Positions 22,842 to 63,556 of a DNA stretch of 64,000 nt are shown here, piece by piece; the stretch's first letter is position 1; each line of letters begins with the position of its first letter. The notes under the pieces were generated by a model. The model did no database searches, was not told the DNA's origin, and saw only the letters and a list, made by a program, of their open reading frames with translations. The translations under genes and the position numbers were made by a program. This DNA is from a phage, in sequence record OZ336093.1; one strand, given 5' to 3'.

Positions 22842-24986
22842 ATGAACAAAGTACAGATTATTAAAAAGAACGGCTCACTTGAAGAACCTGATATCAAAAA
22901 AGTTTTAGCAGCAGTCACAAAGTCAGCTAACAGAGTTGGTTATAAAGAGCTTCCACCAGATGTTACTCAAGCTCTTGAGTCAGCATTTATGAGGATTCTG
23001 GTAAAGTCCACTAAGCAGAATAATTTGCTAATTTCTGTAAATGATATTCACAGTATTGTTGAGGGTGCTTTGGCAGAAGTCAATCACGAGATTTATGAGT
23101 CTTACTCAACATATAGAAATTACCGTAAAGAAGTTGCTCAAAATTGGGATGAGCTTTACCAGAAGACCAAAGATACACTCTTCTTAGGTGACCGAGAAAA
23201 CGCTAATTTTGACAGCAGTTTAATTTCTACAAAAGGTTCAATTATTCGTGGTTATCTGACTAAAGAAATCTTTAAACAGTACCACTTAACACCAGAGGAA
23301 CTTGAAGCCATTGAAAAAGGGTTTATCTATATCCATGATTTAAGAGACCTAATTTTTGGTGGTATCAACTGTTGCCTGTTTGACATTGGTAAAGTCCTGA
23401 AAGGTGGCTTTGAAATGTCTGGCATCGAATATTGTGAACCGAAGTCTGTACTGTCAGCCTTACAGGTTATTGGTGATGTAGTTCTTTCAGCAACTGCACA
23501 GCAATTTGGTGGTTTTACTTTAGCAGAGATTGATAAGGTACTTGTACCGTATGCTAAGAAGTCTCTACGCTATCATGCTGAGAAAGCATCATCTTATGGT
23601 ATTCCTAAAGAGCATTACCACAATTATGTAATGGAGCAGTTACAAATTGAACTGACTCAAGGTTTTCAGTCACTTGAGATGAAACTAAATACCGTGCCTT
23701 GTAGCCGTGGTGATTTTGCATTCACAACTTTGACATTCGGGTTACTTGAATCAGATATGTCCAATGAAGATAACCGACTGCAATATATGATTGCAAGTAC
23801 TCTCCTAGATGTTCGTATGAATGGTCAAGGTAAGAGCAAGAAACCTGTTGTATTCCCTAAACTGGTTTATATTTATGACCAGAAGAGACATAATGAGAAT
23901 ATCTGCCAAGGCCACCTGTACAGTAAAGCTATAGAGTGTTGCTCTAAAGCGATGTATCCAGATTTCTTAAGTGTGTCTGGTCATGGTGCTGTAGCAGAAG
24001 CTTTTGAGCGTTCTGGCAAGGTAATTTCGCCGATGGGTTGTAGAGCCTTCTTATCTCCATATCTTAATGAGGATGGGGAAGAGTTCTACGTTGGTCGTGC
24101 TAACATTGGTGCTGTATCTTTGAACTTACCGATGATTTATCAGTACGCCAAAGAGAATGGTTTAGATTTCTGGAAAGAGCTTGATAAGTACCTAGAGATG
24201 ATTCGCAGCTTCCACAAGAAACGCTACGAAATGATTGCTAATATGCCAGCAAGTTCTAACCCTCTCGCATTCACACAGGGTGGTCTATACAAAGGGAATA
24301 AGAAACCTACTGATAAGGTTGGCTGGGATATCGTGAAGTCCTTCACAGCTTCTTTTGGGGTTACTGCGCTTGATGAATTATCTGTTCTTGCTGAAGGTAA
24401 ACGACTTCATGAAGTTGGAAGTTGCAGTTTTGCATACGATGTTCTGGAATACATCAACATGAAAACTGAAGAGTTTAAAAATGAAGATGGTTTCTTATAT
24501 GCAGTCTATGGCACTCCAGCAGAATCACTTTGTGGAACTCAGCTAAAACAGTTCAGAGATATGTTTGGAGTTATCAAAGGTGTTTCTGATAAGGAATACT
24601 TTACAAACAGCTTCCATATGAATGTTGCAGCAGACATCACACCATTTGAGAAGCAGGACTTAGAAGAACCTTTCTTCCATATCTGTAGAGGTGGCAGAAT
24701 CCAGTATGTAAGGGTAGCTAATCCAGAAAACTTATCAGCACTTAAGAGTTGTATTACAAGAGGGATGTTGAAAGGTTTCTATCAGGGACTTAACTTTGAC
24801 TTAGCAATCTGTGAACATTGTGGTAACAGACCAAAGGCTGATGTTGAAGAGTGTGAGGTTTGCCATTCACATGATATCTCTGTGATTAACAGGGTGTGTG
24901 GGTATCTTGGATGGACTAAGATTAAAGGTGAATCCCGAATGAACGATGCAAAAATCGCTGAGATTCGTGATAGAGTCTCTATGTAA
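22842..24986 (+). CDS. nrdD: anaerobic ribonucleoside-triphosphate reductase (class III)
   Basis: C-terminal glycyl-radical motif RVCGYLG, Cys-rich C-terminus, N-terminal ATP cone. Confidence 0.9.
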   Translation: MNKVQIIKKNGSLEEPDIKKVLAAVTKSANRVGYKELPPDVTQALESAFMRILVKSTKQNNLLISVNDIHSIVEGALAEVNHEIYESYSTYRNYRKEVAQNWDELYQKTKDTLFLGDRENANFDSSLISTKGSIIRGYLTKEIFKQYHLTPEELEAIEKGFIYIHDLRDLIFGGINCCLFDIGKVLKGGFEMSGIEYCEPKSVLSALQVIGDVVLSATAQQFGGFTLAEIDKVLVPYAKKSLRYHAEKASSYGIPKEHYHNYVMEQLQIELTQGFQSLEMKLNTVPCSRGDFAFTTLTFGLLESDMSNEDNRLQYMIASTLLDVRMNGQGKSKKPVVFPKLVYIYDQKRHNENICQGHLYSKAIECCSKAMYPDFLSVSGHGAVAEAFERSGKVISPMGCRAFLSPYLNEDGEEFYVGRANIGAVSLNLPMIYQYAKENGLDFWKELDKYLEMIRSFHKKRYEMIANMPASSNPLAFTQGGLYKGNKKPTDKVGWDIVKSFTASFGVTALDELSVLAEGKRLHEVGSCSFAYDVLEYINMKTEEFKNEDGFLYAVYGTPAESLCGTQLKQFRDMFGVIKGVSDKEYFTNSFHMNVAADITPFEKQDLEEPFFHICRGGRIQYVRVANPENLSALKSCITRGMLKGFYQGLNFDLAICEHCGNRPKADVEECEVCHSHDISVINRVCGYLGWTKIKGESRMNDAKIAEIRDRVSM

Positions 24987-26525: not shown

Positions 26526-26607
26526 TTATTCTGGCAAATGGACTAAGGTATAACTCCAATTGGTATCACTGAAGAAGAACTTCATAAGTTCTGTATTAAA
26601 CTTTAAT

Positions 26608-27227: not shown

Positions 27228-27250
27228 GCAGATACTATAAGGGAACTGTA

Positions 27251-27276
27251 AAGGTTCCCTTTTTATTTTGGAGATA
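27251..27276 (+). terminator. rho-independent terminator
   Basis: GGGAAC-TGTAAAG-GTTCCC followed by TTTTT. Confidence 0.6.
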
Positions 27277-27278
27277 AT

Positions 27279-27794
27279 ATGTATCTGTCAAATCTGAAAC
27301 GTTCTGCTGCAATGTCAGTGTTAAGACTCAGTTTTGAGGAACGTCAAGAGTTCATTGACTCCCACCAATACGACCCTTCCAACTCCAATCACATGATTCT
27401 CTGGAATCGTGAGAGTACTCGTGAAAGAGCATTATTTCGATATTACCCACACTATACCATAGACAACCTATATGAATGCTTTGTTGTGAAGAACACCATT
27501 ACAGTACTCAATAAACTTTGCAGATACACAGGCAGTCAATCCTTCACATTAGGTCACCACAAACCTGTTACAAAAGGTGGTGAACATCACTGTGCAAACT
27601 GGTTTATCCAGACTAAACTTGATAACCAGAAGCAAGGGGATAGTCTTTTAAGTACCCCTAAGATGACCTACGAAGAGCAAGAGAAATATATCAAAAACAA
27701 TATGCCAGATGTGCTTGACAACAACTATACAGATTTGGCAATATCTCTCCTGTTGAAGTTCGAGACAGTTTATAGGGCAACTTATAATGGCTAA
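27279..27794 (+). CDS. HNH endonuclease
   Basis: HNH core GHHKPVTKGGEHHCANWFIQTKLDNQKQG. Confidence 0.65.
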   Translation: MYLSNLKRSAAMSVLRLSFEERQEFIDSHQYDPSNSNHMILWNRESTRERALFRYYPHYTIDNLYECFVVKNTITVLNKLCRYTGSQSFTLGHHKPVTKGGEHHCANWFIQTKLDNQKQGDSLLSTPKMTYEEQEKYIKNNMPDVLDNNYTDLAISLLLKFETVYRATYNG

Positions 27795-28065
27795 AGAGAA
27801 GTGGGAGATTTTACCATTAGTCAGTGAAGGTGGTAATGGTTGTGAGATGTACATGATACGTGGTCATGTTCCAGAACCAATTGCACTTGAGATGGTAAAC
27901 AACTTTACAGATGGCTCTTACAAAGACTTAGGAGAGCCAACTATAAAGCAGCAATGGGTAAAGCCTGTACCAGACAGCACAGGTAACTGTAGTGTACTTT
28001 ATCACGTTGTAGACCCTGCAAAATGCAAATCTGCAATGGCAGTAACAAACGTAACTTTTGATTGA
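27787..28065 (+). CDS. hypothetical protein
   Basis: 92 aa ORF. Confidence 0.45.
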   Translation: MAKEKWEILPLVSEGGNGCEMYMIRGHVPEPIALEMVNNFTDGSYKDLGEPTIKQQWVKPVPDSTGNCSVLYHVVDPAKCKSAMAVTNVTFD

Positions 28066-28076
28066 GAGAGAAAACT

Positions 28077-28958
28077 ATGAAAACATCTATCCGTGTTACA
28101 GTTCATTCACCAACTAAAGGGACTCATGAAGAAGAGTTTAACATCGTCCAATTCCCTTCTGGTGAGATTGGTGGACACTTTTCGCCAGAGTTTGTTGATT
28201 TTACTGCTTATGCAGCATCATCTATCAACAATGTGATTATGATTGTAAAAGGTTATGATAAGGACACATTGTTTGCTGTGGCACTTGCTAAAGAAGCAAT
28301 TGATGATTTAGTACCTCATAAGTTTGCTATGAAGACTGCTATCTTTTACTATTTGCCAAATGCACGTTACGACCGTCACATGTTTAAAGGTGATGCAGCA
28401 GCTTTGAAAGTGTTTGCACAACAGGTTAATGCAATGGGTTTTGATGCAGTCTGTGCAGTTGACCCTCACAGCTATGTACCAGATAACCTGTTTAACTGCT
28501 TCCAGAGTATTCCTCAAAAGGAAATTGCAGTCCACTATGCAAATGACCCACTGATTGATTACTTAGTAGCCCCAGATGCAGGTGCTGCTAAGAAGATTGC
28601 AGAGACTGCTAAAGAGGTGGATAAACCATACATCACAATGTCTAAAGTGCGTAACCTTAAGACTGGTGAAATTACTGGTATGCGAATCCTTGATGATGTT
28701 GATTTGACAGATAAAACCGTCATGATTCTGGATGATATCTGTGATGGTGGTCGAACCTTCATAGAAGCAGCGAAGCATCTTCGTGAAGCAGGTGCAAAAC
28801 GTGTGGAACTTTATGTAACACATGGTATCTTCTCTAAAGATGTTGAAAACCTTCTTGACAATGGTATCGACCATATTTACACTACAAACTCTTTAGGCGA
28901 AGCTAAAGACCGTGGCTTAACACATTACAGTCAAGTTACTGTAGCAAACCTTGATTGA
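28077..28958 (+). CDS. ribose-phosphate pyrophosphokinase-like enzyme (Prs family; could be an ADP-ribose pyrophosphokinase)
   Basis: PRPP-binding motif VMILDDICDGGRTFIEAAKHLREAGAKRVELYVTHGIFS; start at ATG after GAGAGAG RBS. Confidence 0.8.
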   Translation: MKTSIRVTVHSPTKGTHEEEFNIVQFPSGEIGGHFSPEFVDFTAYAASSINNVIMIVKGYDKDTLFAVALAKEAIDDLVPHKFAMKTAIFYYLPNARYDRHMFKGDAAALKVFAQQVNAMGFDAVCAVDPHSYVPDNLFNCFQSIPQKEIAVHYANDPLIDYLVAPDAGAAKKIAETAKEVDKPYITMSKVRNLKTGEITGMRILDDVDLTDKTVMILDDICDGGRTFIEAAKHLREAGAKRVELYVTHGIFSKDVENLLDNGIDHIYTTNSLGEAKDRGLTHYSQVTVANLD

Positions 28959-28966
28959 AAGTTTAT

Positions 28967-28988
28967 AGGGGCTTAAAAGCCCCATTTT
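28967..28988 (+). terminator. rho-independent terminator
   Basis: GGGGCTT-AAA-AGCCCC followed by ATTTT. Confidence 0.5.
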
Positions 28989-29003
28989 GAGAGAGATTAA
29001 AAG

Positions 29004-30785
29004 ATGACTAAATCACTTTATGCAGTACCAGCAGGTTTAAACGCAGATGCTTACAAATCTGGTCATGTTTACCAGTACCCTAGTGCAACAGAATACTTGA
29101 TGTTCAACCTGACACCACGTAGTGACAAATGGTTTAACAGCCCATTAGCAATTGATGGTGTAGTAGCTTTTGGTATTCAACGTTTCGTTAAAGATTACTT
29201 GATAGACCACTGGAACGCCACTTTCTTTGAACGTGATAAAAAAGAAGCCATTGATGAAATATTAGAAGTCATGAATGGTGTTCTGGGTAAAGATGCTATC
29301 GGTCGAGAGCATTGGGAAGCACTTCACGACTTAGGTTATCTACCAGTTGAAGTATACGCTGTAGAAGAAGGTACAGTTGTCCCTATGCGTGTCCCAATGA
29401 TTGTCTTCCAGAACACTGTTTCAGGTTTCCATTGGGTAGCGGGGTATCTGGAAGATGCTTTCTCTGCTGAGATTTGGAAGGCTTGTACCATTGCAACTAT
29501 TGCATTGCATTATAAACGCATCTGTAAGAAGTGGGCTGACCTTACTTGCGACAACGACTTACATTTACCTTATCAGTGCCATGACTTTGCTATGCGTGGT
29601 ATGTCCGGCTTTACTGATGACGCATTTAACGCTGTAGGCCACTTAACCAGCTTTAAAGGAACTGATAGCTTCCCTGCTGTGTATACGGCTAAACGAATCT
29701 ATGGACAGTCTTACCCAATCTCTGATATTGGTAGCTCTGTACCAGCCACTGAGCACTCTGTAATGTGTGCAAACATTGCTTGGGAAGGTGGTAATGAGTT
29801 GATTGAAGAAGAAAGACGCTTTAAAGGTGAGTTACAAACCTTCCGTCGTTTCTTAACAGAAACTTACCCAACTGGTATTGCAAGTATTGTTTCAGATACT
29901 TATAACTTCTGGAGAACTGTGTCAGAAATCTTACCAGCACTCCGTAAAGAAATTATGGAACGTGATGGTAAACTGGTAATTCGCCCTGACTCTGGAGACC
30001 CTGTACATATTGTCACAGGTTATAAAGCAATCCACTTAGAGTGTGCTAAAAAGGCTTATTACGAGCACCTAAGCAAGCTTGAAGCCAGCGACACAATGTT
30101 GAATGCTGTTCTGAACATGAAGCTTGAAAACATCAACTATGGTATTGCTGGATGGCTACTGTCAGAAGGCTACGAAATGGTTGTTGACAGAGAAGACTTT
30201 GAAGTTGCTGATACAGTGCTGTTGAAAAACGCTTATATGGTTGGTTCTGCAAACGTTGTAACACGTCCTGTAGCGGAGATTGATGGAGCTATCAAGACAC
30301 TGTATAACATCTTTGGGGGAACTATTAACTCTAAAGGGTTTAAGGTACTGGATGAGCACATCGGCCTTATCTATGGTGACTCTATCACGCTGGAACGTGC
30401 AAACGAAATCATGAAGCGTCTGTATGAAATGGGTTTTGCAAGCTCTAACGTAGTATTTGGTGTAGGCTCTTACACTTACCAGTACATGACTCGTGACACC
30501 TTTGCATTTGCTGTCAAAGCAACTCTTGCAAGCATTGGTGGTAAAGAGATTATGCTTGCAAAAGACCCTAAAACAGATAGTGGTGTTAAGAAATCTGCCT
30601 TTGGTGGTGTAGCACCTATGTGGGATGGTGAAAATCTGAAAGCTGTAGATGGCTATGGGTTCCAGAGCTTTGCAGATGCACTTGAACACCCAGCTTGTGC
30701 TTTACGTCTAGTCTTTAGTGACTCTGAGCAGTTCGGCTACACAACTCTTGGTGATATTCGAAATAATATTGACAAGCAGCTTTAA
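29004..30785 (+). CDS. nadV: nicotinamide phosphoribosyltransferase-like enzyme (NadV/NAMPT family)
   Basis: 593 aa with NAMPT-like layout, directly downstream of Prs-like gene. Confidence 0.8.
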   Translation: MTKSLYAVPAGLNADAYKSGHVYQYPSATEYLMFNLTPRSDKWFNSPLAIDGVVAFGIQRFVKDYLIDHWNATFFERDKKEAIDEILEVMNGVLGKDAIGREHWEALHDLGYLPVEVYAVEEGTVVPMRVPMIVFQNTVSGFHWVAGYLEDAFSAEIWKACTIATIALHYKRICKKWADLTCDNDLHLPYQCHDFAMRGMSGFTDDAFNAVGHLTSFKGTDSFPAVYTAKRIYGQSYPISDIGSSVPATEHSVMCANIAWEGGNELIEEERRFKGELQTFRRFLTETYPTGIASIVSDTYNFWRTVSEILPALRKEIMERDGKLVIRPDSGDPVHIVTGYKAIHLECAKKAYYEHLSKLEASDTMLNAVLNMKLENINYGIAGWLLSEGYEMVVDREDFEVADTVLLKNAYMVGSANVVTRPVAEIDGAIKTLYNIFGGTINSKGFKVLDEHIGLIYGDSITLERANEIMKRLYEMGFASSNVVFGVGSYTYQYMTRDTFAFAVKATLASIGGKEIMLAKDPKTDSGVKKSAFGGVAPMWDGENLKAVDGYGFQSFADALEHPACALRLVFSDSEQFGYTTLGDIRNNIDKQL

Positions 30786-30798
30786 AAGTATATGATAA

Positions 30799-30823
30799 GA
30801 GGCTCCTACGGGAGCCTTTTTAA
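30799..30823 (+). terminator. rho-independent terminator
   Basis: GAGGCTCC-TACG-GGAGCCTTTTT. Confidence 0.65.
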
Positions 30824-30835
30824 TTTCTGGAGAAG

Positions 30836-38616: not shown

Positions 38617-39402
38617 ATGGGTATTGTAAAAATCATCAAAGGTGATATCTTTGACGCATTTGATAAAGGTAAGTTTGACATCATTGGTCACGGTTGCAAC
38701 TGTATGAACTTCATGGGTGCAGGTATTGCAGCAACTATTTCCAAGCGTTATCCAAAAGTGTATGATACTGACACAGAAGTTTACCTGTTTGCAGGTGGCA
38801 TTCGTCACAAACCCTGTGAAAATTTACTAGGTAATTTCTCTGTAGCACGTTTAAAACAAGGCCGTATAGCTAACCTTTACACCCAACTTCATACTGGTAA
38901 AGATGCCCGATACAGTGCTTTAGAGTCATCTTTGAAACAGCTTAACAGATACTGTGAAGTTAACCAGTTGAAGAAAGTTGGTCTACCTATGATTGGTGCA
39001 GGTATCGGTGGGCTTGACCCTCAAGCTGTCACAGTTATCATTAATCAGGTGATGAAGAGTGTAGATGTTTATCTGTATGTCTATGAAGCAAAAATGTATA
39101 ATGAGTTACACTCAGGTTGGAAAAACTACTGTGAACCAGAATACTTTGCAGGTGTAGTTGTGTTCACAGATAACGAAGTTACCCTCTTCAGACGAAGAAA
39201 AGGTAAGATACATCAAAGTAACCCTCCGGTTGAAAAGATGTCTCTGAGTAACGCTCTAGTTACCCACCTGTCGAAGAGCAATCACAGGATTGCAGTAACA
39301 TTTGGCAGTGATGCAGATACTTATATCTATGCAAGAACTGATGAGGATATCGAGACAGTTTTCTCTTCACCAGAAGTTACCTTCTTAGACGCAAAGAACT
39401 AA
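38617..39402 (+). CDS. macro-domain protein (ADP-ribose binding/processing)
   Basis: N-terminal IIKGDIFDAFDKGKFDIIGHGCNCMNFMGAGIAATI matches macro-domain layout (GDI..., Gly-rich AGIA loop). Confidence 0.65.
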   Translation: MGIVKIIKGDIFDAFDKGKFDIIGHGCNCMNFMGAGIAATISKRYPKVYDTDTEVYLFAGGIRHKPCENLLGNFSVARLKQGRIANLYTQLHTGKDARYSALESSLKQLNRYCEVNQLKKVGLPMIGAGIGGLDPQAVTVIINQVMKSVDVYLYVYEAKMYNELHSGWKNYCEPEYFAGVVVFTDNEVTLFRRRKGKIHQSNPPVEKMSLSNALVTHLSKSNHRIAVTFGSDADTYIYARTDEDIETVFSSPEVTFLDAKN

Positions 39403-58410: not shown

Positions 58411-58487
58411 CTCTGTTTAGCTCAGCTTGGTAGAGCGTTCCGTTTGGGGCGGTAAGGCCGGAGGTTCAAGTCCTCCAACAGAGACCA
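58411..58487 (+). tRNA. tRNA-Pro (anticodon TGG)
   Basis: hand-folded cloverleaf, 7 bp acceptor, T-arm GGAGG-TTCAAGT-CCTCC, CCA encoded. Confidence 0.7.
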
Positions 58488-58494
58488 AATTAAT

Positions 58495-58572
58495 GTTCCA
58501 GTAGACAAAATGGTAAAGTCACCACTCTTTCAAAGTGGATATCTGAGGGTTCAAATCCCTTCTGGAACGCCA
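58495..58572 (+). tRNA. tRNA-Glu (anticodon TTC)
   Basis: acceptor GTTCCAG/CTGGAAC, anticodon loop CTTTCAA, CCA encoded. Confidence 0.7.
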
Positions 58573-58579
58573 GTTTTGA

Positions 58580-58655
58580 CAGAAGACCAATTACAGCAAA
58601 CTTAATCTTATTCATCTGAAGGTAAATCGGACAAAGAAGAGATTTGGTCTGGTCA
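58580..58655 (+). ncRNA. structured RNA element, copy 1 (5' AGAAGACCAA / 3' TTGGTCTGG closing stem)
   Basis: conserved 5' block CAGAAGACCnnTTACAGCAA and 3' block GGTCTGG; stem covaries between copies. Confidence 0.5.
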
Positions 58656-58663
58656 TTAAGAAT

Positions 58664-58740
58664 TGCGGGTATAGAGAAAGGGCGTCTCACATGTCTCATT
58701 AGCATGGTATCGGCAGGTTCGACTCCTGCACCCGCCTCCA
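58664..58740 (+). tRNA. tRNA with anticodon CAT (Met or Ile2), irregular fold
   Basis: T-arm GCAGG-TTCGACT-CCTGC and CCA present; acceptor/D-arm register ambiguous. Confidence 0.5.
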
Positions 58741-58746
58741 AATTTG

Positions 58747-58808
58747 CAGAAGACCGTATTCAGCAACAAAATACTTTTTGCGGATAAAAGAAAAAACACG
58801 GTCTGGCA
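58747..58808 (+). ncRNA. structured RNA element, copy 2 (5' AGACCGT / 3' ACGGTCT stem)
   Basis: same conserved blocks as copy 1 with compensatory stem changes. Confidence 0.5.
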
Positions 58809-58817
58809 ATGTATTAA

Positions 58818-58894
58818 GGTTAGGAAGCACATAAGGTATGTGCGGTCGCCTGTTAAGCGAATGGCACAGGGTTCGAATCCCTGACTAACCGCCA
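58818..58894 (+). tRNA. tRNA-Asn (anticodon GTT)
   Basis: acceptor GGTTAGG/ACTAACC, loop CTGTTAA, CCA encoded. Confidence 0.7.
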
Positions 58895-58903
58895 AATTTA
58901 AAT

Positions 58904-58991
58904 GTGTCGTTATCCCGTAGATGGTAGCGGTGGGGACTGTAAATCCCTTGTCATTGAGACTCGGTAGGTTCGACTCCTACACGGCACACCA
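58904..58991 (+). tRNA. tRNA-Tyr (anticodon GTA), long variable arm
   Basis: loop CTGTAAA, long variable arm, T-arm GTAGG-TTCGACT-CCTAC, CCA encoded. Confidence 0.7.
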
Positions 58992-58996
58992 ATAAA

Positions 58997-59074
58997 GGTT
59001 ATGTAGTTTAATTTGGTTAAAATGCTCCCCTGTCACGGGAGATGATGAGGGTTCAAATCCCTTCGTAACCGCCA
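58997..59074 (+). tRNA. tRNA-Asp (anticodon GTC)
   Basis: stem CTCCC/GGGAG around loop CTGTCAC, CCA encoded. Confidence 0.7.
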
Positions 59075-59135
59075 ATTTTGAGAGGGCTATTTAGCCCCTC
59101 CCTTAAAGGGTTCTTACGAGTATCCTTTAAAGGGG

Positions 59136-59211
59136 CAGAAGACCAAATACAGCAAGAATGTATGAAATTTCAAGCCAATTTAATTTTGAAAATTTAAAAC
59201 TTGGTCTGGCT
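59136..59211 (+). ncRNA. structured RNA element, copy 3 (5' AGACCAA / 3' TTGGTCT stem)
   Basis: conserved CAGAAGACCAAATACAGCAA and TTGGTCTGG. Confidence 0.5.
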
Positions 59212-59222
59212 CAACAAATTTA

Positions 59223-59356
59223 CAGAAGACCGTTTACAGCAAAACTTAAACAATCTATTTCTCCGGTAAAGAAAAGGCGAAGGTTCGATTCCTTCACTCG
59301 GCAGATGTCGAGTTGGTGTAATGGTAGCACTTAAGATGATAAACAACGGTCTGGTA
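59223..59356 (+). ncRNA. structured RNA element, copy 4, with internal tRNA-like module
   Basis: closing stem AGACCGTT/AACGGTCT; interior carries T-arm-like GAAGG-TTCGATT-CCTTC and D-arm-like GTTGGTGTAATGGTAGCAC but no complete tRNA. Confidence 0.5.
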
Positions 59357-59503
59357 ATTATCTTTGTAGATAAGTTATTAAGCTTACCTGTGAGTATGCG
59401 ACCACAAAGGGTGAAAGGGTAAATTCTAGATTTAAACCCAACAAGGCACATCGCTACAGACCTTAAGCAAGTCTGGGTAGCTTATCTACAAAGATAATTT
59501 AAT

Positions 59504-59579
59504 GGAAGTGTAGCAGAATGGTGATGCGGCAGACTTTTAATCTGACAGGCGATGGGTTCGAATCCCTCCACTTCTACCA
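59504..59579 (+). tRNA. tRNA-Lys (anticodon TTT)
   Basis: loop CTTTTAA, T-stem with one bulged T, CCA encoded. Confidence 0.6.
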
Positions 59580-59583
59580 ATAT

Positions 59584-59660
59584 GGTTCAGTCGCAGATAA
59601 GGTAATGCAAGGGTCTCATAAGCCCTATGAATGTGGGTTCGATTCCCATCTGAACCTCCA
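59584..59660 (+). tRNA. tRNA-Met (anticodon CAT)
   Basis: loop CTCATAA flanked by GGG/CCC stem, acceptor GGTTCAG/CTGAACC, CCA encoded. Confidence 0.7.
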
Positions 59661-59661
59661 A

Positions 59662-59738
59662 GCTGGTATAGTTAAGAAGGTTATAACACTCCCCTGATAA
59701 GGGAACATCGGTGGTTCGATTCCACCTACCAGTACCAA
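59662..59738 (+). tRNA. tRNA-Ile (anticodon GAT)
   Basis: loop CTGATAA, T-arm GGTGG-TTCGATT-CCACC, CCA encoded. Confidence 0.65.
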
Positions 59739-59753
59739 TTTCAATAAAGTTGT

Positions 59754-59782
59754 TGACATTGAGATGTGACTACTTTATAGTA
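59754..59782 (+). promoter_or_regulatory. sigma70-like promoter TTGACA-N17-TATAGT inside the tRNA array
   Basis: consensus -35 with 17 bp spacer and TATAGT -10; followed by about 200 nt with no tRNA. Confidence 0.6.
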
Positions 59783-59983
59783 ACCTTAGTTTTCGTTGCG
59801 TAGCGTCTATTTTGCAAATTTAAAATAAATGCAAACGACAATGTTTTTCTGGCAGTAGCTTGATAGGCTAAACACCAGCGAGGTCTTCCAATCCCTCATC
59901 AAAGAATTTGGCGTACTAGCCCACGGTATGATTAATAAGGTGGGCATCTTTAAGGGCTTTCTAAGAGAGTCTTTAAAGATTAA

Positions 59984-60060
59984 TGCACCCTTAGTTCAAT
60001 TGGATAGAGCAACGGTCTTCTAAATCGTTAGTTACAGGTTCGAATCCTGTAGGGTGTGCC
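59984..60060 (+). tRNA. tRNA-Arg (anticodon TCT)
   Basis: loop CTTCTAA, T-arm ACAGG-TTCGAAT-CCTGT, CCA encoded. Confidence 0.7.
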
Positions 60061-60203
60061 AATTAGTTAGCAGATTACTTAGACGACCTAAGCGGGTCTT
60101 CCTGTAGGGAGGTGGTCTGTATCTCATGTTTTCCAGAACATGTAAATAATCTGAGAAGGGGCTTTACAGTGTTGAGATAATACGGTAAGCTTCGAATTAT
60201 AGT

Positions 60204-60286
60204 ATGGGACGATGTTAAGACTCTAAGGCATGAGCAACGGCCTCCAAAACCGTTTCAAAGGGGTTCAAATCCTCCGTCCCATGCCA
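60204..60286 (+). tRNA. tRNA-Trp-like (anticodon CCA), irregular
   Basis: anticodon arm resembles E. coli tRNA-Trp (CTCCAAA loop); about 7 extra nt between acceptor and D-stem. Confidence 0.45.
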
Positions 60287-60299
60287 AAGTCTTATTAGG

Positions 60300-60387
60300 G
60301 GTAGGTAGCGGCTAATGGCAGCCAAACAGTCTTGAAAACTGTTGCCACTGTAGAGATACGGTGAGGGTTCGACTCCTTTACTTACCG
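60300..60387 (+). tRNA. tRNA-Ser (anticodon TGA), long variable arm
   Basis: loop CTTGAAA, long variable arm; CCA not encoded. Confidence 0.65.
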
Positions 60388-60544
60388 CCTAATAAGATTT
60401 AAAGCCAAGCTTCATTCGGATGTTGCTTTGGTATACCGCGTGTATTGTTGTACGCACTGATAAAGCACCTAGTAGGTGTCACGGAGAAGAGATAATATCA
60501 AGCTCTCCAAAGGTTCTAGTCACCGGATTAAACAAGACTATGCA

Positions 60545-60568
60545 AAGACCTTTTTAGGTCTTTTTAGA
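60545..60568 (+). terminator. hairpin terminator within tRNA array
   Basis: AAGACCT-TTTT-AGGTCTT followed by TTTT. Confidence 0.5.
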
Positions 60569-60645
60569 GGGCTTCTAAGGTTATTACAGCTTGTTGTGGA
60601 ACCTTGTTGCTTAGGTTCTTAGAAGTTCTCTAAAAAGATTTAATG

Positions 60646-60723
60646 GGAGATTGACGGTAATTGGTAAACCTACCATCCTTAGAAGTTGGTGTTTGAGGGT
60701 TCGAATCCCTTGTCTCCTACCAA
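60646..60723 (+). tRNA. tRNA with anticodon TAG (nominally Leu) on a short-variable-arm scaffold
   Basis: loop CTTAGAA, acceptor GGGAGAT/GTCTCCT, CCA encoded; weak D-stem. Confidence 0.5.
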
Positions 60724-60730
60724 ATTAATG

Positions 60731-60806
60731 CAGGTGTAGCAAAATGGTTATGCGGCTGACTCTTAATCAGTAAGACGATGGGTTCAATTCCCTCCACCTG
60801 TACCAG
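60731..60806 (+). tRNA. tRNA-Lys (anticodon CTT)
   Basis: loop CTCTTAA; paralogous to the TTT copy incl. bulged T-stem; CCA encoded. Confidence 0.6.
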
Positions 60807-60812
60807 ACATTG

Positions 60813-60888
60813 GGGATGTAGTTTACATGGTTAAAACATAAGTTTTGCAAACTTAAGTACAGGGTTCAATTCCCTGCTTCTCCACCAA
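60813..60888 (+). tRNA. tRNA-Ala (anticodon TGC)
   Basis: D-stem GTTT/AAAC, loop TTTGCAA, T-arm CAGGG-TTCAATT-CCCTG, CCA encoded. Confidence 0.7.
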
Positions 60889-60894
60889 TTAGTG

Positions 60895-60969
60895 CATCCA
60901 TAGTTTAAACGGGAAAATTACAGTCTTCCAAACTGAGGTTGAGGGTTCGATTCCCTCTGGATGCTCCAA
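60895..60969 (+). tRNA. tRNA-Gly (anticodon TCC)
   Basis: loop CTTCCAA, acceptor GCATCCA/TGGATGC, CCA encoded. Confidence 0.65.
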
Positions 60970-60976
60970 ATTAATG

Positions 60977-61053
60977 CTGCTTTCGTATAATTGGCTATTA
61001 CACATCCCTTGTAAGGATGGAAATGCGGGTTCGAGTCCTGTGAGCAGCACCAA
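60977..61053 (+). tRNA. tRNA-Thr (anticodon TGT)
   Basis: stem CATCC/GGATG around loop CTTGTAA, CCA encoded. Confidence 0.7.
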
Positions 61054-61055
61054 TT

Positions 61056-61147
61056 CAGAGGTCAAGTGAAAGACCGCTGGTGTCAACTGAAGACCGTAAC
61101 AAATTCCACGGAGTTGAGTTAGCGGCACAACTTCAGACCTCTTTCAC
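61056..61147 (+). ncRNA. possible small structured RNA between tRNA-Thr and tRNA-Val
   Basis: about 90 nt with internal complementarity (AGTGAAAGA recurs; GAGGTC pairs with GACCTC) and no tRNA fold. Confidence 0.3.
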
Positions 61148-61222
61148 ACTCGCTTAGTTTATATGGTAAAACATCACCCTTACAAGATGAAGAAAAAGGT
61201 TCAAGTCCTTTAGTGAGTACCA
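61148..61222 (+). tRNA. tRNA-Val (anticodon TAC)
   Basis: loop CTTACAA, T-arm AAAGG-TTCAAGT-CCTTT, CCA encoded. Confidence 0.65.
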
Positions 61223-61223
61223 T

Positions 61224-61301
61224 GTTCCAGTATCCCAATTGGCAGAGGATGCAAGCTCAAACCTTGTATTAGTGACGGTTCGAATCCGTCTTGGAACACC
61301 A
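61224..61301 (+). tRNA. tRNA with anticodon CAA (nominally Leu) on a short-variable-arm scaffold
   Basis: stem GCAAG/CTTGT around loop CTCAAAC, T-arm GACGG-TTCGAAT-CCGTC, CCA encoded. Confidence 0.55.
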
Positions 61302-61306
61302 ATTTT

Positions 61307-61382
61307 GCAGGATTAGTTCAAATGGATAGAGCAACAGTCTACGAAGCTGTTAATAGGGGTTCGAATCCCTTATCCTGCGCCA
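61307..61382 (+). tRNA. tRNA-Arg (anticodon ACG)
   Basis: loop CTACGAA, D-arm GTTC..GAGC, CCA encoded. Confidence 0.7.
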
Positions 61383-61399
61383 GATAAAAAGGTGATACT

Positions 61400-61642
61400 A
61401 TGCAAACATTAACAGTAGTTGAACATGAAAACTGTGAGAATATTGAGTTTGTCAGGGTCATTGGTGTTGAACACCACATTTTCTTAAAAGTAGGGTACTT
61501 ATGTGACCCCGCTAGAGTAGAAAGATTTATACGTGATTGTTTTGGTGGTAGACAGCTAAAGAGTGTTATTTTTGAGACAGTTTTACCAGAAGGTTTAGAA
61601 ACGAATAATAACATTTATCTCCTTACAAGGATTAGACGATGA
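61400..61642 (+). CDS. hypothetical protein embedded in tRNA array
   Basis: 80 aa ORF starting 18 nt after tRNA-Arg. Confidence 0.35.
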   Translation: MQTLTVVEHENCENIEFVRVIGVEHHIFLKVGYLCDPARVERFIRDCFGGRQLKSVIFETVLPEGLETNNNIYLLTRIRR

Positions 61643-62196
61643 GATATTTAAAATATGCTTCATGGATTTTCCTAGCTTTGCTAGAACCATTAGCAGCAAC
61701 CTTAGCAGTTATCTTAGCACCTTTCGTAGTTCCATTTTACAGTGAGAAGAAAGGCCACTTACCTTTCGGATTTAGATGGATGGAGACATATGACAACCCA
61801 ATTGATGGTGACGAAGGTCATATCGAACGATGGGCTAAGATTAGAAAGATTGGTAAGCTGGGTGTCTACATGCAGAGAGTCGGATGGCTCTGGAGAAACA
61901 AAGCTTATAACTTCTCTTACCATGTATTAGGAAGAGATGTAAAAGATGTTACTAAGTGGAAAGGTAATATCAACGTAAGTTCTGACCCTGAAGATAATCA
62001 GACAGGTTATCTCCTAATGTGGAACAGTAATGCTTGGGGATTATTCGCTTTTATCCCATCAATTAAAGTCTTTGGTAAACAGTTTTACTGGAGAATTTAT
62101 ATTGGATGGAAACTAAAAAGTGTTGTCCCAGAAGAAAGAGCATTCTCAAGGGAAAGAGTTATGTTGGCATTCTTTATTCATCCACTGAGAAAGTAA
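61639..62196 (+). CDS. hypothetical membrane protein embedded in tRNA array
   Basis: 185 aa, N-terminal TM segment, Trp-rich. Confidence 0.45.
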   Translation: MRYLKYASWIFLALLEPLAATLAVILAPFVVPFYSEKKGHLPFGFRWMETYDNPIDGDEGHIERWAKIRKIGKLGVYMQRVGWLWRNKAYNFSYHVLGRDVKDVTKWKGNINVSSDPEDNQTGYLLMWNSNAWGLFAFIPSIKVFGKQFYWRIYIGWKLKSVVPEERAFSRERVMLAFFIHPLRK

Positions 62197-62204
62197 AGAT
62201 TTAA

Positions 62205-62280
62205 AGGGGATTAGTTTACAAGGTTAAAACCTCGGTCTTTGAAATCGAAGAAGTTGGTTCAATTCCAACATCCCCCGCCA
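62205..62280 (+). tRNA. tRNA-Gln (anticodon TTG)
   Basis: loop CTTTGAA, weak 1-72 pair as typical for tRNA-Gln, CCA encoded. Confidence 0.65.
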
Positions 62281-62282
62281 AT

Positions 62283-62361
62283 ACTCCATTACTCCAATTG
62301 GCAGAGAGGCCAGACTTAAAATCTGTGTTATGTATCGGTTCGAATCCGATATGGAGTACCA
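62283..62361 (+). tRNA. tRNA with anticodon TAA (nominally Leu) on a short-variable-arm scaffold
   Basis: loop CTTAAAA, T-arm ATCGG-TTCGAAT-CCGAT, about 7 nt variable loop, CCA encoded. Confidence 0.55.
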
Positions 62362-62366
62362 AATTT

Positions 62367-62442
62367 AGCGGTATAGCATAACTGGCAATGCAACAGTCTC
62401 TGAAGCTGTCCTATTAAGGTTCAAATCTTTATGCCGCTGCCA
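62367..62442 (+). tRNA. tRNA-Gln (anticodon CTG)
   Basis: loop CTCTGAA, D-stem GCAT/ATGC, CCA encoded. Confidence 0.6.
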
Positions 62443-62471
62443 CTTCTAAGGGTTCTTACGAGAGTCCTTAA

Positions 62472-62547
62472 ATGTGGCCTTATCATAAATGGTAATGACC
62501 CATGCTGTGAACATGGTCTATACGGGTTCAAATCCCGTAGGTCACCC
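62472..62547 (+). tRNA. tRNA-His (anticodon GTG)
   Basis: loop CTGTGAA, discriminator C, CCA encoded. Confidence 0.65.
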
Positions 62548-62553
62548 CAATTT

Positions 62554-62629
62554 ATAGTCCAAGTAGCTTATATGGTTAAAGCGCGTGTCTGAAAAACATG
62601 AGAAGAGGGTTCAAATCCCACTGGACTAC
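62554..62629 (+). tRNA. tRNA-Phe-like (anticodon GAA), irregular
   Basis: loop CTGAAAA, D-stem GCTT/AAGC; acceptor and T-stem register off by one. Confidence 0.5.
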
Positions 62630-62647
62630 CAATTTCAAAGGTGCTTA

Positions 62648-63382
62648 ATGAAAGAGATGACAGAACAAGGTAAGGAGATTTTTAATCTCTTAAAAACCGG
62701 TAAAGGGTTTTCTAACCCACTTATTACTGGTGCAGCAGTTCTCGGTGGAACCGTAGCTGCTTCTACATCACTTGTAAGCTCTATTAGTTCTGTAACAGAC
62801 CCTACAATGCAGGAGAAACTTGTTGCTGCTGGACTTACAACAGTCCTTCTAAACAGCTTTACAACAAGCCTTACAAGCACTACAGCAACTACTAAGACCC
62901 TGACAGACTACGGTCAAAAATCTATTGATGAGTTTTCATCACGTATGCAGGTAGCAAAGGGATATTCCAATGTTATGGGTGCAGCAGGAGAACAAGTTGG
63001 TTGTACACCGTTCAGTGGTATTATGGGTGTTGCTACAGAATATGGTCAAAAAGCTATTGATACGATTAACAGTACACTAGAGAGTGTTAACAATGTATTA
63101 AGTGACTTACAAGACGCTATTGACAAGGGTCTTGATACTGTTTCTGATTTAGCTAACCAAGCTGTCAGTAAGATTAATGAAGGTATCTCAAAGATTACAG
63201 CTTATGCAGATGAAGTTGTGCAGATGATTGAAGAAGAAGCTGCCCTTATTGCAGAGTACCTTAAAACGAATATCAATGGGTTCTTAGCAGGTATCTTACC
63301 AGACTGGTTTGATGATGCCTGTAAAACTGGTGTAATTGACACTATTGCAACACCAGAAATGAAGAACGCATTACAGAAATAA
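62648..63382 (+). CDS. hypothetical Ser/Thr-rich protein embedded in tRNA array
   Basis: start moved to first ATG downstream of tRNA-Phe (track start 62585 overlaps the tRNA). Confidence 0.45.
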   Translation: MKEMTEQGKEIFNLLKTGKGFSNPLITGAAVLGGTVAASTSLVSSISSVTDPTMQEKLVAAGLTTVLLNSFTTSLTSTTATTKTLTDYGQKSIDEFSSRMQVAKGYSNVMGAAGEQVGCTPFSGIMGVATEYGQKAIDTINSTLESVNNVLSDLQDAIDKGLDTVSDLANQAVSKINEGISKITAYADEVVQMIEEEAALIAEYLKTNINGFLAGILPDWFDDACKTGVIDTIATPEMKNALQK

Positions 63383-63383
63383 T

Positions 63384-63476
63384 GGAAGATTAACCCTAAA
63401 AGGTAAGGGAGCAGTTTGCTAAACTGCCAGTAGCTGAGAAATCGGTGTACCAGTTCAAGTCTGGTATCTTCCTCCA
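63384..63476 (+). tRNA. tRNA-Ser (anticodon GCT), long variable arm
   Basis: stem GCAGT/ACTGC around loop TTGCTAA, long variable arm, CCA encoded. Confidence 0.7.
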
Positions 63477-63480
63477 ATTT

Positions 63481-63556
63481 GAATCCGTGACAGAAATGGC
63501 TATGTGCCTGTCTGCAAAACAGGTTTATAAGGGTTCGAGTCCCTTCGGATTCTCCA
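63481..63556 (+). tRNA. tRNA-Cys (anticodon GCA)
   Basis: stem CCTGT/ACAGG around loop CTGCAAA, CCA encoded. Confidence 0.7.

Follow-up and report, generated by a model that had tools for sequence, protein, structure and literature searches.

A Prs-like and NAMPT-like gene pair in a FelixO1-like phage is very probably a NARP1 operon orthologous to that of Bas63

The two adjacent genes at positions 28077 to 30785 of the window (the whole 64,000-nucleotide stretch of phage sequence record OZ336093.1 analyzed here) very probably constitute the NARP1 operon of a Felixounavirus (FelixO1-like phage), encoding an ADP-ribose pyrophosphokinase (Adps) and a nicotinamide ADP-ribose transferase (Namat). 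Sequence comparison assigns the window, which covers ~64 kb of an ~87-kb genome, to the genus Felixounavirus, and 256 phage records matched the gene pair, with a DNA identity of up to 98.3%. The pair is already explained by known NARP1, first defined in phage Bas63 (JohannRWettstein; MZ501086), a Felixounavirus like the window phage. The first-pass annotation had placed a Prs-like gene immediately followed by a NAMPT-like gene at 28077-30785, which was confirmed by family matches far above chance; both ORFs (28077-28958 and 29004-30785) lie on the + strand in a phage context, separated by a 45-nt spacer. It had left two alternatives, NAD+ salvage or NARP1, and considered that sequence alone cannot say which. 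NARP1 was the correct half of that pair. Sequence does discriminate between Prs/Nampt and NARP1, because the genes are positional orthologues of Bas63 genes 79-80 and carry the published hallmarks distinguishing Adps from Prs and Namat from Nampt. The Adps and Namat activities and the counter-defence phenotype of the allele pair in the window are those that we infer from this orthology.

NARP1 was discovered through deletion of genes 79-80 (bas63_0079-0080) in Bas63 (Osterman et al., bioRxiv 10.1101/2024.02.11.579819). The deletion raised the sensitivity of the phage to SIR2-HerA ~20-fold and aggravated the depletion of NAD+; protection was independent of host pncC and nadR, SIR2-HerA being overcome in the double-deletion host (bioRxiv 10.1101/2024.02.11.579819). 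The window Adps shares 80% identity with Bas63 gp79 (293/293 residues) and the window Namat 98% with gp80 (593/593 residues), in both cases at equal length and without gaps, and the gene order is the same in the two phages from nrdD/nrdG through adps and namat to rIIA/rIIB. Strong purifying selection was evident on both genes (dN/dS of 0.09 to 0.15 for adps and 0.05 for namat). Some points count against a direct transfer of the published results. The experimental support concerns the Bas63 allele, from which the window Adps diverges over its first 160 residues (only 69% identity there). The in vitro biochemistry of NARP1 derives from the SpbetaL1 and ICP1 enzymes, and the crystallized SpbetaL1 enzyme lacks an ~80-aa subdomain of the Felixounavirus Namat.

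The adps gene (28077-28958, +) was identified by its ORF, its Prs-family matches, and its orthology to Bas63 gp79. The ORF spans 28062/28077 to 28958; the ATG at 28077, which yields a 293-aa protein, is the start annotated in Bas63 and has a purine tract (GAGAGAGA) just 5′ of it. The protein is 100% identical to that of phage vB_EcoM-Ro111lw. Its PRPS-like two-domain fold is supported by matches to Pfam Pribosyltran (PF00156; 1.3e-11) and Pribosyl_synth (PF14572; 4.4e-10), to NCBIfam TIGR01251 ribP_PPkin (127 bits; cut-off, 113), and to Prs sequences in the PDB, where a sequence search retrieved cellular Prs only (best 4twb; E = 2e-19). PHROG 619 ("ribose-phosphate pyrophosphokinase") matched at 2.7e-98. 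The generic TIGR01251 was, however, the sole NCBIfam model passed among those for Prs: none of the 11 models specific for ribose-phosphate diphosphokinase (7 equivalogs and 4 subfamily models) reached its cut-off, with scores far below the required values (e.g., NF002095, 105.8 versus 296; NF002320, 93.6 versus 297). The Prs profiles were matched only to ~20 positions short of their ends, and the C-terminal PRPS module α11-α12 is absent, as Adps stops 13 residues before E. coli Prs and has an additional 7-residue gap. BLASTP gave 116 to 129 bits to NARP1-linked Adps proteins (ICP1, Thalassavirus GRLPWR, and Pakpunavirus LPS-5) and 66 bits to E. coli Prs; on these scores, Adps is nearer to the Namat-linked Adps proteins than to cellular Prs.

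The acceptor and catalytic residues of Adps are known from structures of the ICP1 enzyme (PMC13586617), with the catalytic lysine located on a β-hairpin (K185 in ICP1 and K162 in SpbetaL1), and all of them are conserved in the window protein. We took the ICP1 sequence (UniProt F1D1Q1) from a phage record and counted residue numbers against PMC13586617. The window protein is 31% identical to ICP1 Adps in a four-sequence alignment (40% in the local BLASTP match) and, in the alignment with E. coli Prs, 23% identical to that protein, which has a C-terminal filament/regulatory module that the window protein lacks; the truncation is the same in ICP1 Adps. ICP1 residues F18, R87, H121, D161, and K185 are conserved as F26, R97, H131, D167, and K190 in the window protein, and D212, D213, C215, D216, and F221 as D219, D220, C222, D223, and F228. 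K190, R97, H131, D167, D219, D220, D223, and F26 are invariant columns of the four-sequence alignment. The PP-loop region (residues 219 to 228; 28731-28760, +), aligned with ICP1 D212-F221, reads DDICDGGRTF in the window, DDICDGAASF in ICP1, and DDMIDTGGTL in E. coli Prs, the latter thus having DDMIDT where the window protein has DDICDG. Adps proteins share a remodelled donor site (ICP1 C215-S220, with F221 and F223 as a lid). Within it, C222, D223, G224, and F228 are conserved in the window protein, whereas ICP1 A218, A219, and S220 are replaced by G, R, and T. The lid residue F223 of ICP1 corresponds to E230 in the window Adps, a difference that weighs against the NARP1 reading but recurs in Bas63, which is functional in vivo with the same PP-loop and lid residues. 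ICP1 F92 aligns with M102, which is adjoined by F103.

The downstream gene, namat (29004-30785, +; 593 aa), was likewise assigned from its ORF, family matches, and orthology to Bas63 gp80. It matched Pfam NAPRTase (9.5e-35), NCBIfam PRK09198 (468 bits; cut-off, 405), and PHROG 448 ("nicotinamide phosphoribosyl transferase"; 5.7e-202), with NAMPT_N at 24.9 bits, slightly below the 25-bit cut-off. An AlphaFold2 model (pLDDT, 93.2; pTM, 0.92) found its best structural match in the SpbetaL1 Namat crystal structure (9w5x/9w5w; target-normalized TM, 0.95). The IRPDSG motif is present as VIRPDSGDP, and R327 corresponds to the catalytic R306 of SpbetaL1 (human R311). Namat proteins carry a selectivity-clamp helix (SCH) with the consensus GS-X-φ-X-φ-X-φ-TRD, X being aromatic (PMC12774641). 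The window motif GSYTYQYMTRD (residues 488 to 498; 30465-30497, +) fits this adenine-clamp consensus, as does GSFTYQYNTRD in SpbetaL1 Namat, whereas the aromatic residues of the clamp are missing from true Nampt/NadV (GGALLQKVDRD in Xanthomonas Nampt, 7yqo; GAQTYQRNTRD in Haemophilus ducreyi NadV, 9ke8). In the selectivity-clamp loop (SCL), position 3 is R, K, or Y, with a stacking residue at position 4 if it is K or Y, and W was modeled as the stacking residue in Bas63 Namat (PMC12774641). The window SCL reads S-D-K-W, as in Bas63, in a register taken from the wording of PMC12774641 rather than from its figure; SpbetaL1 Namat stacks the adenine with R, whereas the window protein would use K-W, as in the Bas63 model.

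Two insertions set the window Namat apart from the SpbetaL1 enzyme. A short one (~15 aa; residues 258 to 272) is missing from SpbetaL1 Namat. The other is the lineage-specific subdomain of ~80 aa (about residues 340 to 427; 30021-30284, +), an α/β insertion revealed by structure and homologue comparison and lacking in the solved Namat and Nampt structures. Homologous copies occurred in 254 records, all from Ounavirinae, and the length at this site ranged from 12 to 94 residues among Namat homologues. The insertion, like the clamp residues, is the same in Bas63 Namat. Within the full-length AlphaFold2 model it forms a confident α/β unit (block pLDDT, 87 to 96), and modeled alone from the single sequence it was mediocre (pLDDT, 68.6). 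Foldseek searches of the PDB with this lone model returned nothing under E = 0.38, so that no fold could be assigned.

In the mechanism, whose steps are taken from published work on NARP1 orthologues, an NAD+-depleting defence system (SIR2-HerA, type I Thoeris, DSR1/2, or SEFIR) would split NAD+ into ADP-ribose and nicotinamide. Adps would then attach the β-γ pyrophosphate of ATP to ADP-ribose at its 1″ hydroxyl, yielding ADPR-pyrophosphate (ADPR-PP) and AMP, and Namat would replace the pyrophosphate by nicotinamide; NAD+ would be regenerated, and infection could therefore proceed. Housekeeping Prs and true Nampt/NadV, human NAMPT included, share superfamily folds and core phosphoribosyl chemistry with the window pair, and the names Prs and nicotinamide/nicotinate phosphoribosyltransferase recur in Pfam, NCBIfam, PHROG, and nearly all GenBank annotations. 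These names would suit classical salvage, in which ribose-5-phosphate is converted to PRPP and, with nicotinamide, to NMN, NAD+ being completed by host NadR/PncC. In vitro, SpbetaL1 homologues formed ADPR-PP and synthesized NAD+, and in the absence of ADPR-PP the SpbetaL1 Namat did produce NMN from PRPP (bioRxiv 10.1101/2024.02.11.579819). However, when Namat was given both substrates, NAD+ was the sole product (bioRxiv 10.1101/2024.02.11.579819), and Bas63 defeats SIR2-HerA in the host deleted for both pncC and nadR. The adenine clamp of the window Namat, absent from true Nampt/NadV, also speaks against salvage, as do an Adps that falls below every Prs-specific NCBIfam cut-off, lacks the PRPS regulatory C terminus, and scores ~2 times higher to validated Adps than to E. 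coli Prs. Salvage as the function of the pair is therefore very improbable, although some classical (NMN-forming) activity of the window Namat is still conceivable.

Even less credible, to the point of being negligible, is a NARP2 (Nampt and Nmnat, as in KVP40) or NARP3 (NadR and PnuC, as in Bas30) route with partner genes elsewhere in the genome. NARP3 comprises a NadR-like RNK-NMNAT enzyme and a PnuC transporter (PMC13464706). The ~23 kb of the genome lying outside the window could accommodate such a partner. Against this, no CTP_transf_like/NMNAT (PF01467), NUDIX (PF00293), NadR, PnuC, or RyR domain was detected when 101 other ORFs of the window were scanned with Pfam, which bears out the earlier remark that no NMNAT partner is visible in the window. 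The scan set aside the six largest ORFs (DNA polymerase, primase/helicase, NrdA, NrdB, NrdD, and rIIA), which were identified by synteny with the Bas63 annotation only. In Bas63, which has the same gene order, no such partner is annotated among genes 45 to 110 (a 40-kb stretch), and in the published phylogeny Namat proteins that accompany Adps fall into a different clade from Nampt proteins that accompany Nmnat (bioRxiv 10.1101/2024.02.11.579819). The variant known as NARP1 with RyDEP (PMC13232231) is marked by a RyR-domain (PF02026) gene, and none was found in or beside the operon or among the scanned window ORFs.

The NARP1 genes lie in a putative transcription unit of four ORFs enclosed by two terminator-like hairpins. 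The upstream hairpin (27239-27266, +; 9-bp stem followed by TTTATTTT) would mark the beginning of this unit, and an intrinsic-terminator-like hairpin with a T-run is located 12 nt past the namat stop (30797-30825, +; 10-bp stem with 5 GC pairs, followed by TTTTTAATTT). The other two ORFs of this unit, only tentatively linked to NARP1, are small (27279-28065, +; 171 and 92 aa) and belong to the function-unknown families PHROG 3500 and 4726, with a weak HNH-like match for the 171-aa product. Their products are orthologous to Bas63 gp77 and gp78, which lie outside the published deletion (bioRxiv 10.1101/2024.02.11.579819). The adps-namat spacer contains a short GC hairpin read from the sequence (GGGGC-TTAAAA-GCCCC followed by ATTTT; 28968-28988, +), too weak to reach the threshold of the terminator scan, and in relatives such as VpaE1 this spacer houses a free-standing HNH endonuclease gene. 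A sigma-70 promoter scan returned 32 matches versus 17 expected, none of them convincingly placed 5′ of adps, and the promoter was left unassigned.

The 5′ part of adps is a divergent-allele segment (28077-28556, +; codons 1 to 160, N-terminal domain), recognized by a drop in DNA identity to Bas63 from 100% (27943-28042) to 65 to 67% (28043-28342), with ~90% beyond 28543. Over these codons, at 69% amino acid identity to Bas63, dS was ~2.6 (saturated) and dN/dS was 0.09, which ruled out positive selection on the Adps N terminus. The first ~160 codons represent an old allele class distinct from that of Bas63, in a pattern of allele replacement by recombination. In the phage collection, the allele seen in the window predominates, with ~156 records matching at ≥90% identity and ~97 at 60 to 90%; the experimentally tested Bas63 allele belongs to the other, less common class.

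An extension of NARP1, NARP1-AP, consists of Adps-Adpp-Namat, as in Vibrio phage Gary (bioRxiv 10.64898/2026.01.28.702374). The window shares its Adps and Namat core, and the genome also encodes a homologous macro-domain protein (38617-39402, +; 261 aa) of the Tk.4/Poa1p/DarG-like type, assigned from Pfam Macro (30 bits; cut-off, 22), PADLOC, and PHROG 335 ("phosphatase") matches and regarded as a candidate accessory only. It has a C-terminal extension of ~105 aa. The operon itself contains no Macro (Adpp) gene, nor do the flanking ORFs up to two genes away; the gene at 38617-39402 is the sole one, 15 genes downstream of namat and past at least one terminator. An extended NARP1 in which this unlinked macro phosphatase turns ADPR-1″-phosphate (the aRES product) into ADP-ribose, i.e., NARP1-AP in trans, would agree with its membership in a Tk.4/Poa1p-like family that includes NARP1-adjacent macro proteins. 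Such proteins are encoded two genes past namat in Pakpunavirus LPS-5 (30% identity; E = 9e-21) and, in Thalassavirus GRLPWR, between the two NARP1 genes (28% identity; E = 4e-14). The gene is also retained in Bas63 (bas63_0095, "putative phosphatase"; 93% identity), and the published NARP1-AP survey was restricted to genes at most two positions from NARP1, a range that would miss 38617-39402. Against trans activity stand the distance and the intervening terminator, a slightly closer relationship (35% identity) to the T4-type Tk.4, which is the anti-DarTG2 factor AdfM, the match to the PADLOC DarG model (5.7e-15), and the occurrence of the family in ~3000 phage records, T4-like phages included. 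To our knowledge, T4-like phages do not carry NARP1. Comparison of the macro protein with Adpp and AdfM gave similar pairwise scores, and its resemblance to AdfM/DarG is at least as great as that to the operon-linked NARP1-AP proteins. The macro protein might thus be an unlinked ADPR-1″-phosphate phosphatase but is more likely a DarT counter, and NARP1-AP in trans is unlikely. Equally doubtful is the broader proposal that Felixounaviruses operate NARP1-AP in trans, with the Adps allele split and the Ounavirinae-only Namat subdomain reflecting host factors that target the enzymes. Were NARP1-AP to act in trans, the survey of two genes on either side would have undercounted it.

For the Adps-Namat pair as a NARP1 operon, the practical value lies in a corrected annotation. 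In almost all of the ~250 records of related phages, these genes still bear the names ribose-phosphate pyrophosphokinase and nicotinamide/nicotinate phosphoribosyltransferase, whereas they are orthologous to an experimentally defined counter-defence operon. This orthology predicts that the window phage would resist SIR2-HerA, type I Thoeris, DSR, and similar NAD+-depleting systems, and the predicted resistance may help in the selection of FelixO1-like phages for therapy or biocontrol.

The adjacent genes adps (28077-28958, plus strand; 293 aa counted from ATG) and namat (29004-30785, plus strand; 593 aa) encode members of the Prs and NAMPT families, respectively. The adps product matched PF00156 and PF14572 in Pfam (Prs family), TIGR01251 in NCBIfam (127 bits; cut-off, 113), and PHROG 619 (E = 2.7e-98), and that of namat matched PF04095 (E = 9.5e-35; NAMPT family), PRK09198 (468 bits; cut-off, 405), and PHROG 448 (E = 5.7e-202), with PF18127 slightly below its cut-off. 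With two same-strand ORFs and these family matches, the pairing reported in the first-pass annotation is real, at a level far above chance. A TTG at 28062 shares bases with the stop codon of the preceding gene; relatives annotate another start for adps. The region matched 256 to 258 phage records (megablast), nearly all from Felixounavirus or other Ounavirinae with Escherichia, Salmonella, Shigella, and Citrobacter as hosts; Escherichia phage heid is the closest across both genes (98.3%), and the Adps of phage vB_EcoM-Ro111lw is 100% identical. The neighbors are FelixO1-like (DNA polymerase, primase/helicase, NrdAB, NrdDG, rIIA/rIIB), as is a plus-strand cluster of 26 tRNAs (58411-63556) that covers 19 amino acids, with two tRNA-Met and no tRNA-Trp.

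In Bas63 (Escherichia phage JohannRWettstein; Felixounavirus, MZ501086), the experimentally tested pair is annotated as "ribose-phosphate pyrophosphokinase" (bas63_0079, 293 aa) and "nicotinamide phosphoribosyltransferase" (bas63_0080, 593 aa). In both phages, nrdD and nrdG plus five small ORFs lie 5′ of the pair, and three small ORFs followed by rIIA/rIIB lie 3′ of it. BLASTP aligned the proteins without gaps over 293/293 residues (80% identity, Adps) and 593/593 residues (98% identity, Namat). By position, adps and namat are orthologues of the Bas63 operon on which NARP1 was founded. Bas63 nrdD is an annotated join of two pieces enclosing the homing endonuclease gene bas63_0068, whereas that of the window (22842-24986, plus strand; 714 aa) is a single unbroken ORF; the two phages thus differ in whether they carry an intron or endonuclease here. 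The alignment also places ∼155 bp between nrdG and the next ORF of Bas63 that are absent from the window near 26544. Among the ORFs within 146-22793, Pfam identified an ATP-dependent DNA ligase, one SegE-like GIY-YIG endonuclease, and one PRA-PH pyrophosphohydrolase domain of MazG-like type, none of which is an NAD+ pathway enzyme.

The first-pass annotation had left two options, i.e., NAD+ salvage by Prs and NadV or the NARP1 counter-defence operon, and stated that sequence alone cannot say which. This statement was incorrect, as sequence signatures tell Adps from Prs and Namat from Nampt. Structures of phage Adps (UniProt F1D1Q1) have been described (PMC13586617), and the ICP1 protein sequence agrees with every residue number quoted there. 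Alignments revealed that ICP1 F18, R87, H121, and D161 are kept as F26, R97, H131, and D167, that catalytic K185 corresponds to K190, and that D212, D213, C215, D216, and F221 correspond to D219, D220, C222, D223, and F228. The PP loop of the window Adps reads DDICDGGRTF; that of ICP1 is DDICDGAASF, and E. coli Prs has DDMIDTGGTL. ICP1 differs from the window protein at three PP-loop positions and at lid residue F223 (E230 in the window), whereas Bas63 Adps is identical to it at all four. Furthermore, the window Adps stops short of the C-terminal alpha11-alpha12 module; loss of this module is described as a defining signature of Adps (PMC13586617). BLASTP scores were 116 to 129 bits against NARP1-linked Adps of ICP1, Thalassavirus GRLPWR, and Pakpunavirus LPS-5 versus 66 bits against E. 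coli Prs, and the protein fell below the cut-off in 11/11 ribose-phosphate diphosphokinase-specific NCBIfam models, passing only the generic one.

Namat is distinguished by an adenine "selectivity clamp" built from two elements, a helix with the motif GS-X-phi-X-phi-X-phi-TRD (X being aromatic) and a loop with R, K, or Y in third position (PMC12774641). The window protein carries GSYTYQYMTRD and S-D-K-W, both shared with Bas63, and the Namat of SpbetaL1 (PDB 9w5x), whose R306 aligns with catalytic R327, has GSFTYQYNTRD. In contrast, a true Nampt from Xanthomonas (7yqo) and a true NadV from H. ducreyi (9ke8) show GGALLQKVDRD and GAQTYQRNTRD at the helix position. The Namat motif occurs in 45/45 aligned homologues examined. 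An AlphaFold2 model built with 45 homologues (pLDDT 93.2, pTM 0.92) best matched Namat crystal structures in the PDB (TM 0.95 on target), with HdNadV and mammalian NAMPT ranking below them. Namat homologues of 496 aa are also encoded on contigs of megabase size from Klebsiella, Cronobacter, Phytobacter, Kosakonia, and Citrobacter (P0068, P0074, P0079, P0085, P0111-P0119). They probably represent NARP1 copies that are bacterial or carried by prophages, of a kind mentioned in PMC12774641; the two checked (P0068 and P0085) carry the clamp motif.

Pfam scans of 101 other ORFs of the 64-kb window for alternative NAD+ routes found no NMNAT or Nudix (NARP2, i.e., Nampt plus Nmnat), no NadR or PnuC (NARP3), and no RyR domain (RyDEP), confirming the earlier remark that no NMNAT partner is visible; likewise, Pfam found no macro domain within the adps-namat operon, as in NARP1-AP, the NARP1 variant with an ADPR-1''-phosphate phosphatase (Adpp). 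Bas63 orthology together with the Adps and Namat signatures makes NARP1 the right one of the two options, and on this comparative evidence the pair is very probably NARP1. Osterman et al. reported that deletion of Bas63 79-80 lowers plating on SIR2-HerA cells ∼20-fold and deepens NAD+ depletion, with protection still seen in a pncC nadR double-deletion host; that the SpbetaL1 homologue of gp79 (Adps) pyrophosphorylates ADP-ribose; and that the gp80 homologue (Namat) converts ADPR-PP and nicotinamide to NAD+, its sole product when PRPP and ADPR-PP are offered together (bioRxiv 10.1101/2024.02.11.579819). NARP1 is already known and was first described in Felixounavirus, the genus of this phage.

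Plus-strand terminator-like hairpins at 27239-27261 and 30797-30820 bound a unit of four ORFs, for which the promoter scan assigned no promoter. Two conserved ORFs of no putative function, 171 aa (PHROG 3500; weak HNH-like match) and 92 aa (PHROG 4726), occupy 27279-28065 (plus strand) between the upstream hairpin and adps and may therefore be cotranscribed with NARP1; their counterparts lie outside the published Bas63 deletion (bioRxiv 10.1101/2024.02.11.579819). The adps-namat spacer (28959-29003) holds a short plus-strand GC hairpin (28968-28983, then ATTTT to 28988), whereas in VpaE1, ULIM3, Z31, Meda, and many other relatives it is filled by a free-standing HNH endonuclease gene of ∼490 bp (2391-2882 of the compared VpaE1 locus, a homing endonuclease gene). 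Relative to solved structures, Namat contains insertions of ∼15 aa (residues 258-272; 29775-29819, plus strand) and ∼80 aa (residues ∼340-427; 30021-30284, plus strand), the latter directly after the IRPDSGDP strand. Among Namat homologues, this site spans 12 to 94 residues, which makes it a length hotspot, and the long insertion has homologous copies in 254 records, from Ounavirinae only. The long insertion is predicted to form a confidently folded alpha/beta subdomain in the full-length model; a model of the insertion by itself had no significant match to any fold.

Fifteen genes downstream of namat, 38617-39402 (plus strand) encodes a 261-aa macro-domain protein (Pfam, 30 bits; cut-off, 22) with a unique C-terminal extension of ∼105 aa, orthologous to the "putative phosphatase" bas63_0095. 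The Adpp of Vibrio phage Gary dephosphorylates ADPR-1''-phosphate, whereby NARP1 beats aRES defence (bioRxiv 10.64898/2026.01.28.702374). The window protein shares 28% identity with the GRLPWR macro protein, encoded between adps and namat and used here as a stand-in for the Gary type, and 30% with that of LPS-5, encoded two genes after namat. The aRES study covered two genes each side of NARP1, so a distal partner would go uncounted. Identity to T4-type Tk.4, recently named AdfM (anti-DarTG2 factor), is 35%; the protein matches the PADLOC DarG model (E = 5.7e-15) and belongs to the Tk.4/Poa1p/DarG-like family, which is represented in ∼3000 phage records. An anti-DarT role seems more likely; action in trans as a NARP1-AP partner is possible, with a low probability.

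Finally, DNA identity to Bas63 is 97 to 100% up to 28042, falls abruptly to 65 to 67% at the adps start, and returns to ∼90% past 28543 and to 94 to 99% through namat, delimiting a sharply bounded mosaic segment of ∼500 nt in the 5′ part of adps (28043-28556, plus strand). Codons 1 to 160 retain 69% amino acid identity with saturated synonymous sites and a dN/dS of 0.09. The segment is therefore an old allele, imported by recombination and held under purifying selection, and reflects neither decay nor fast positive selection. The window-type allele is the commoner (∼156 versus ∼97 records by tblastn identity classes), and the experimentally tested Bas63 allele belongs to the other class. Felixounaviruses carry the Adps N-terminal domain in two old allele classes, each under purifying selection.
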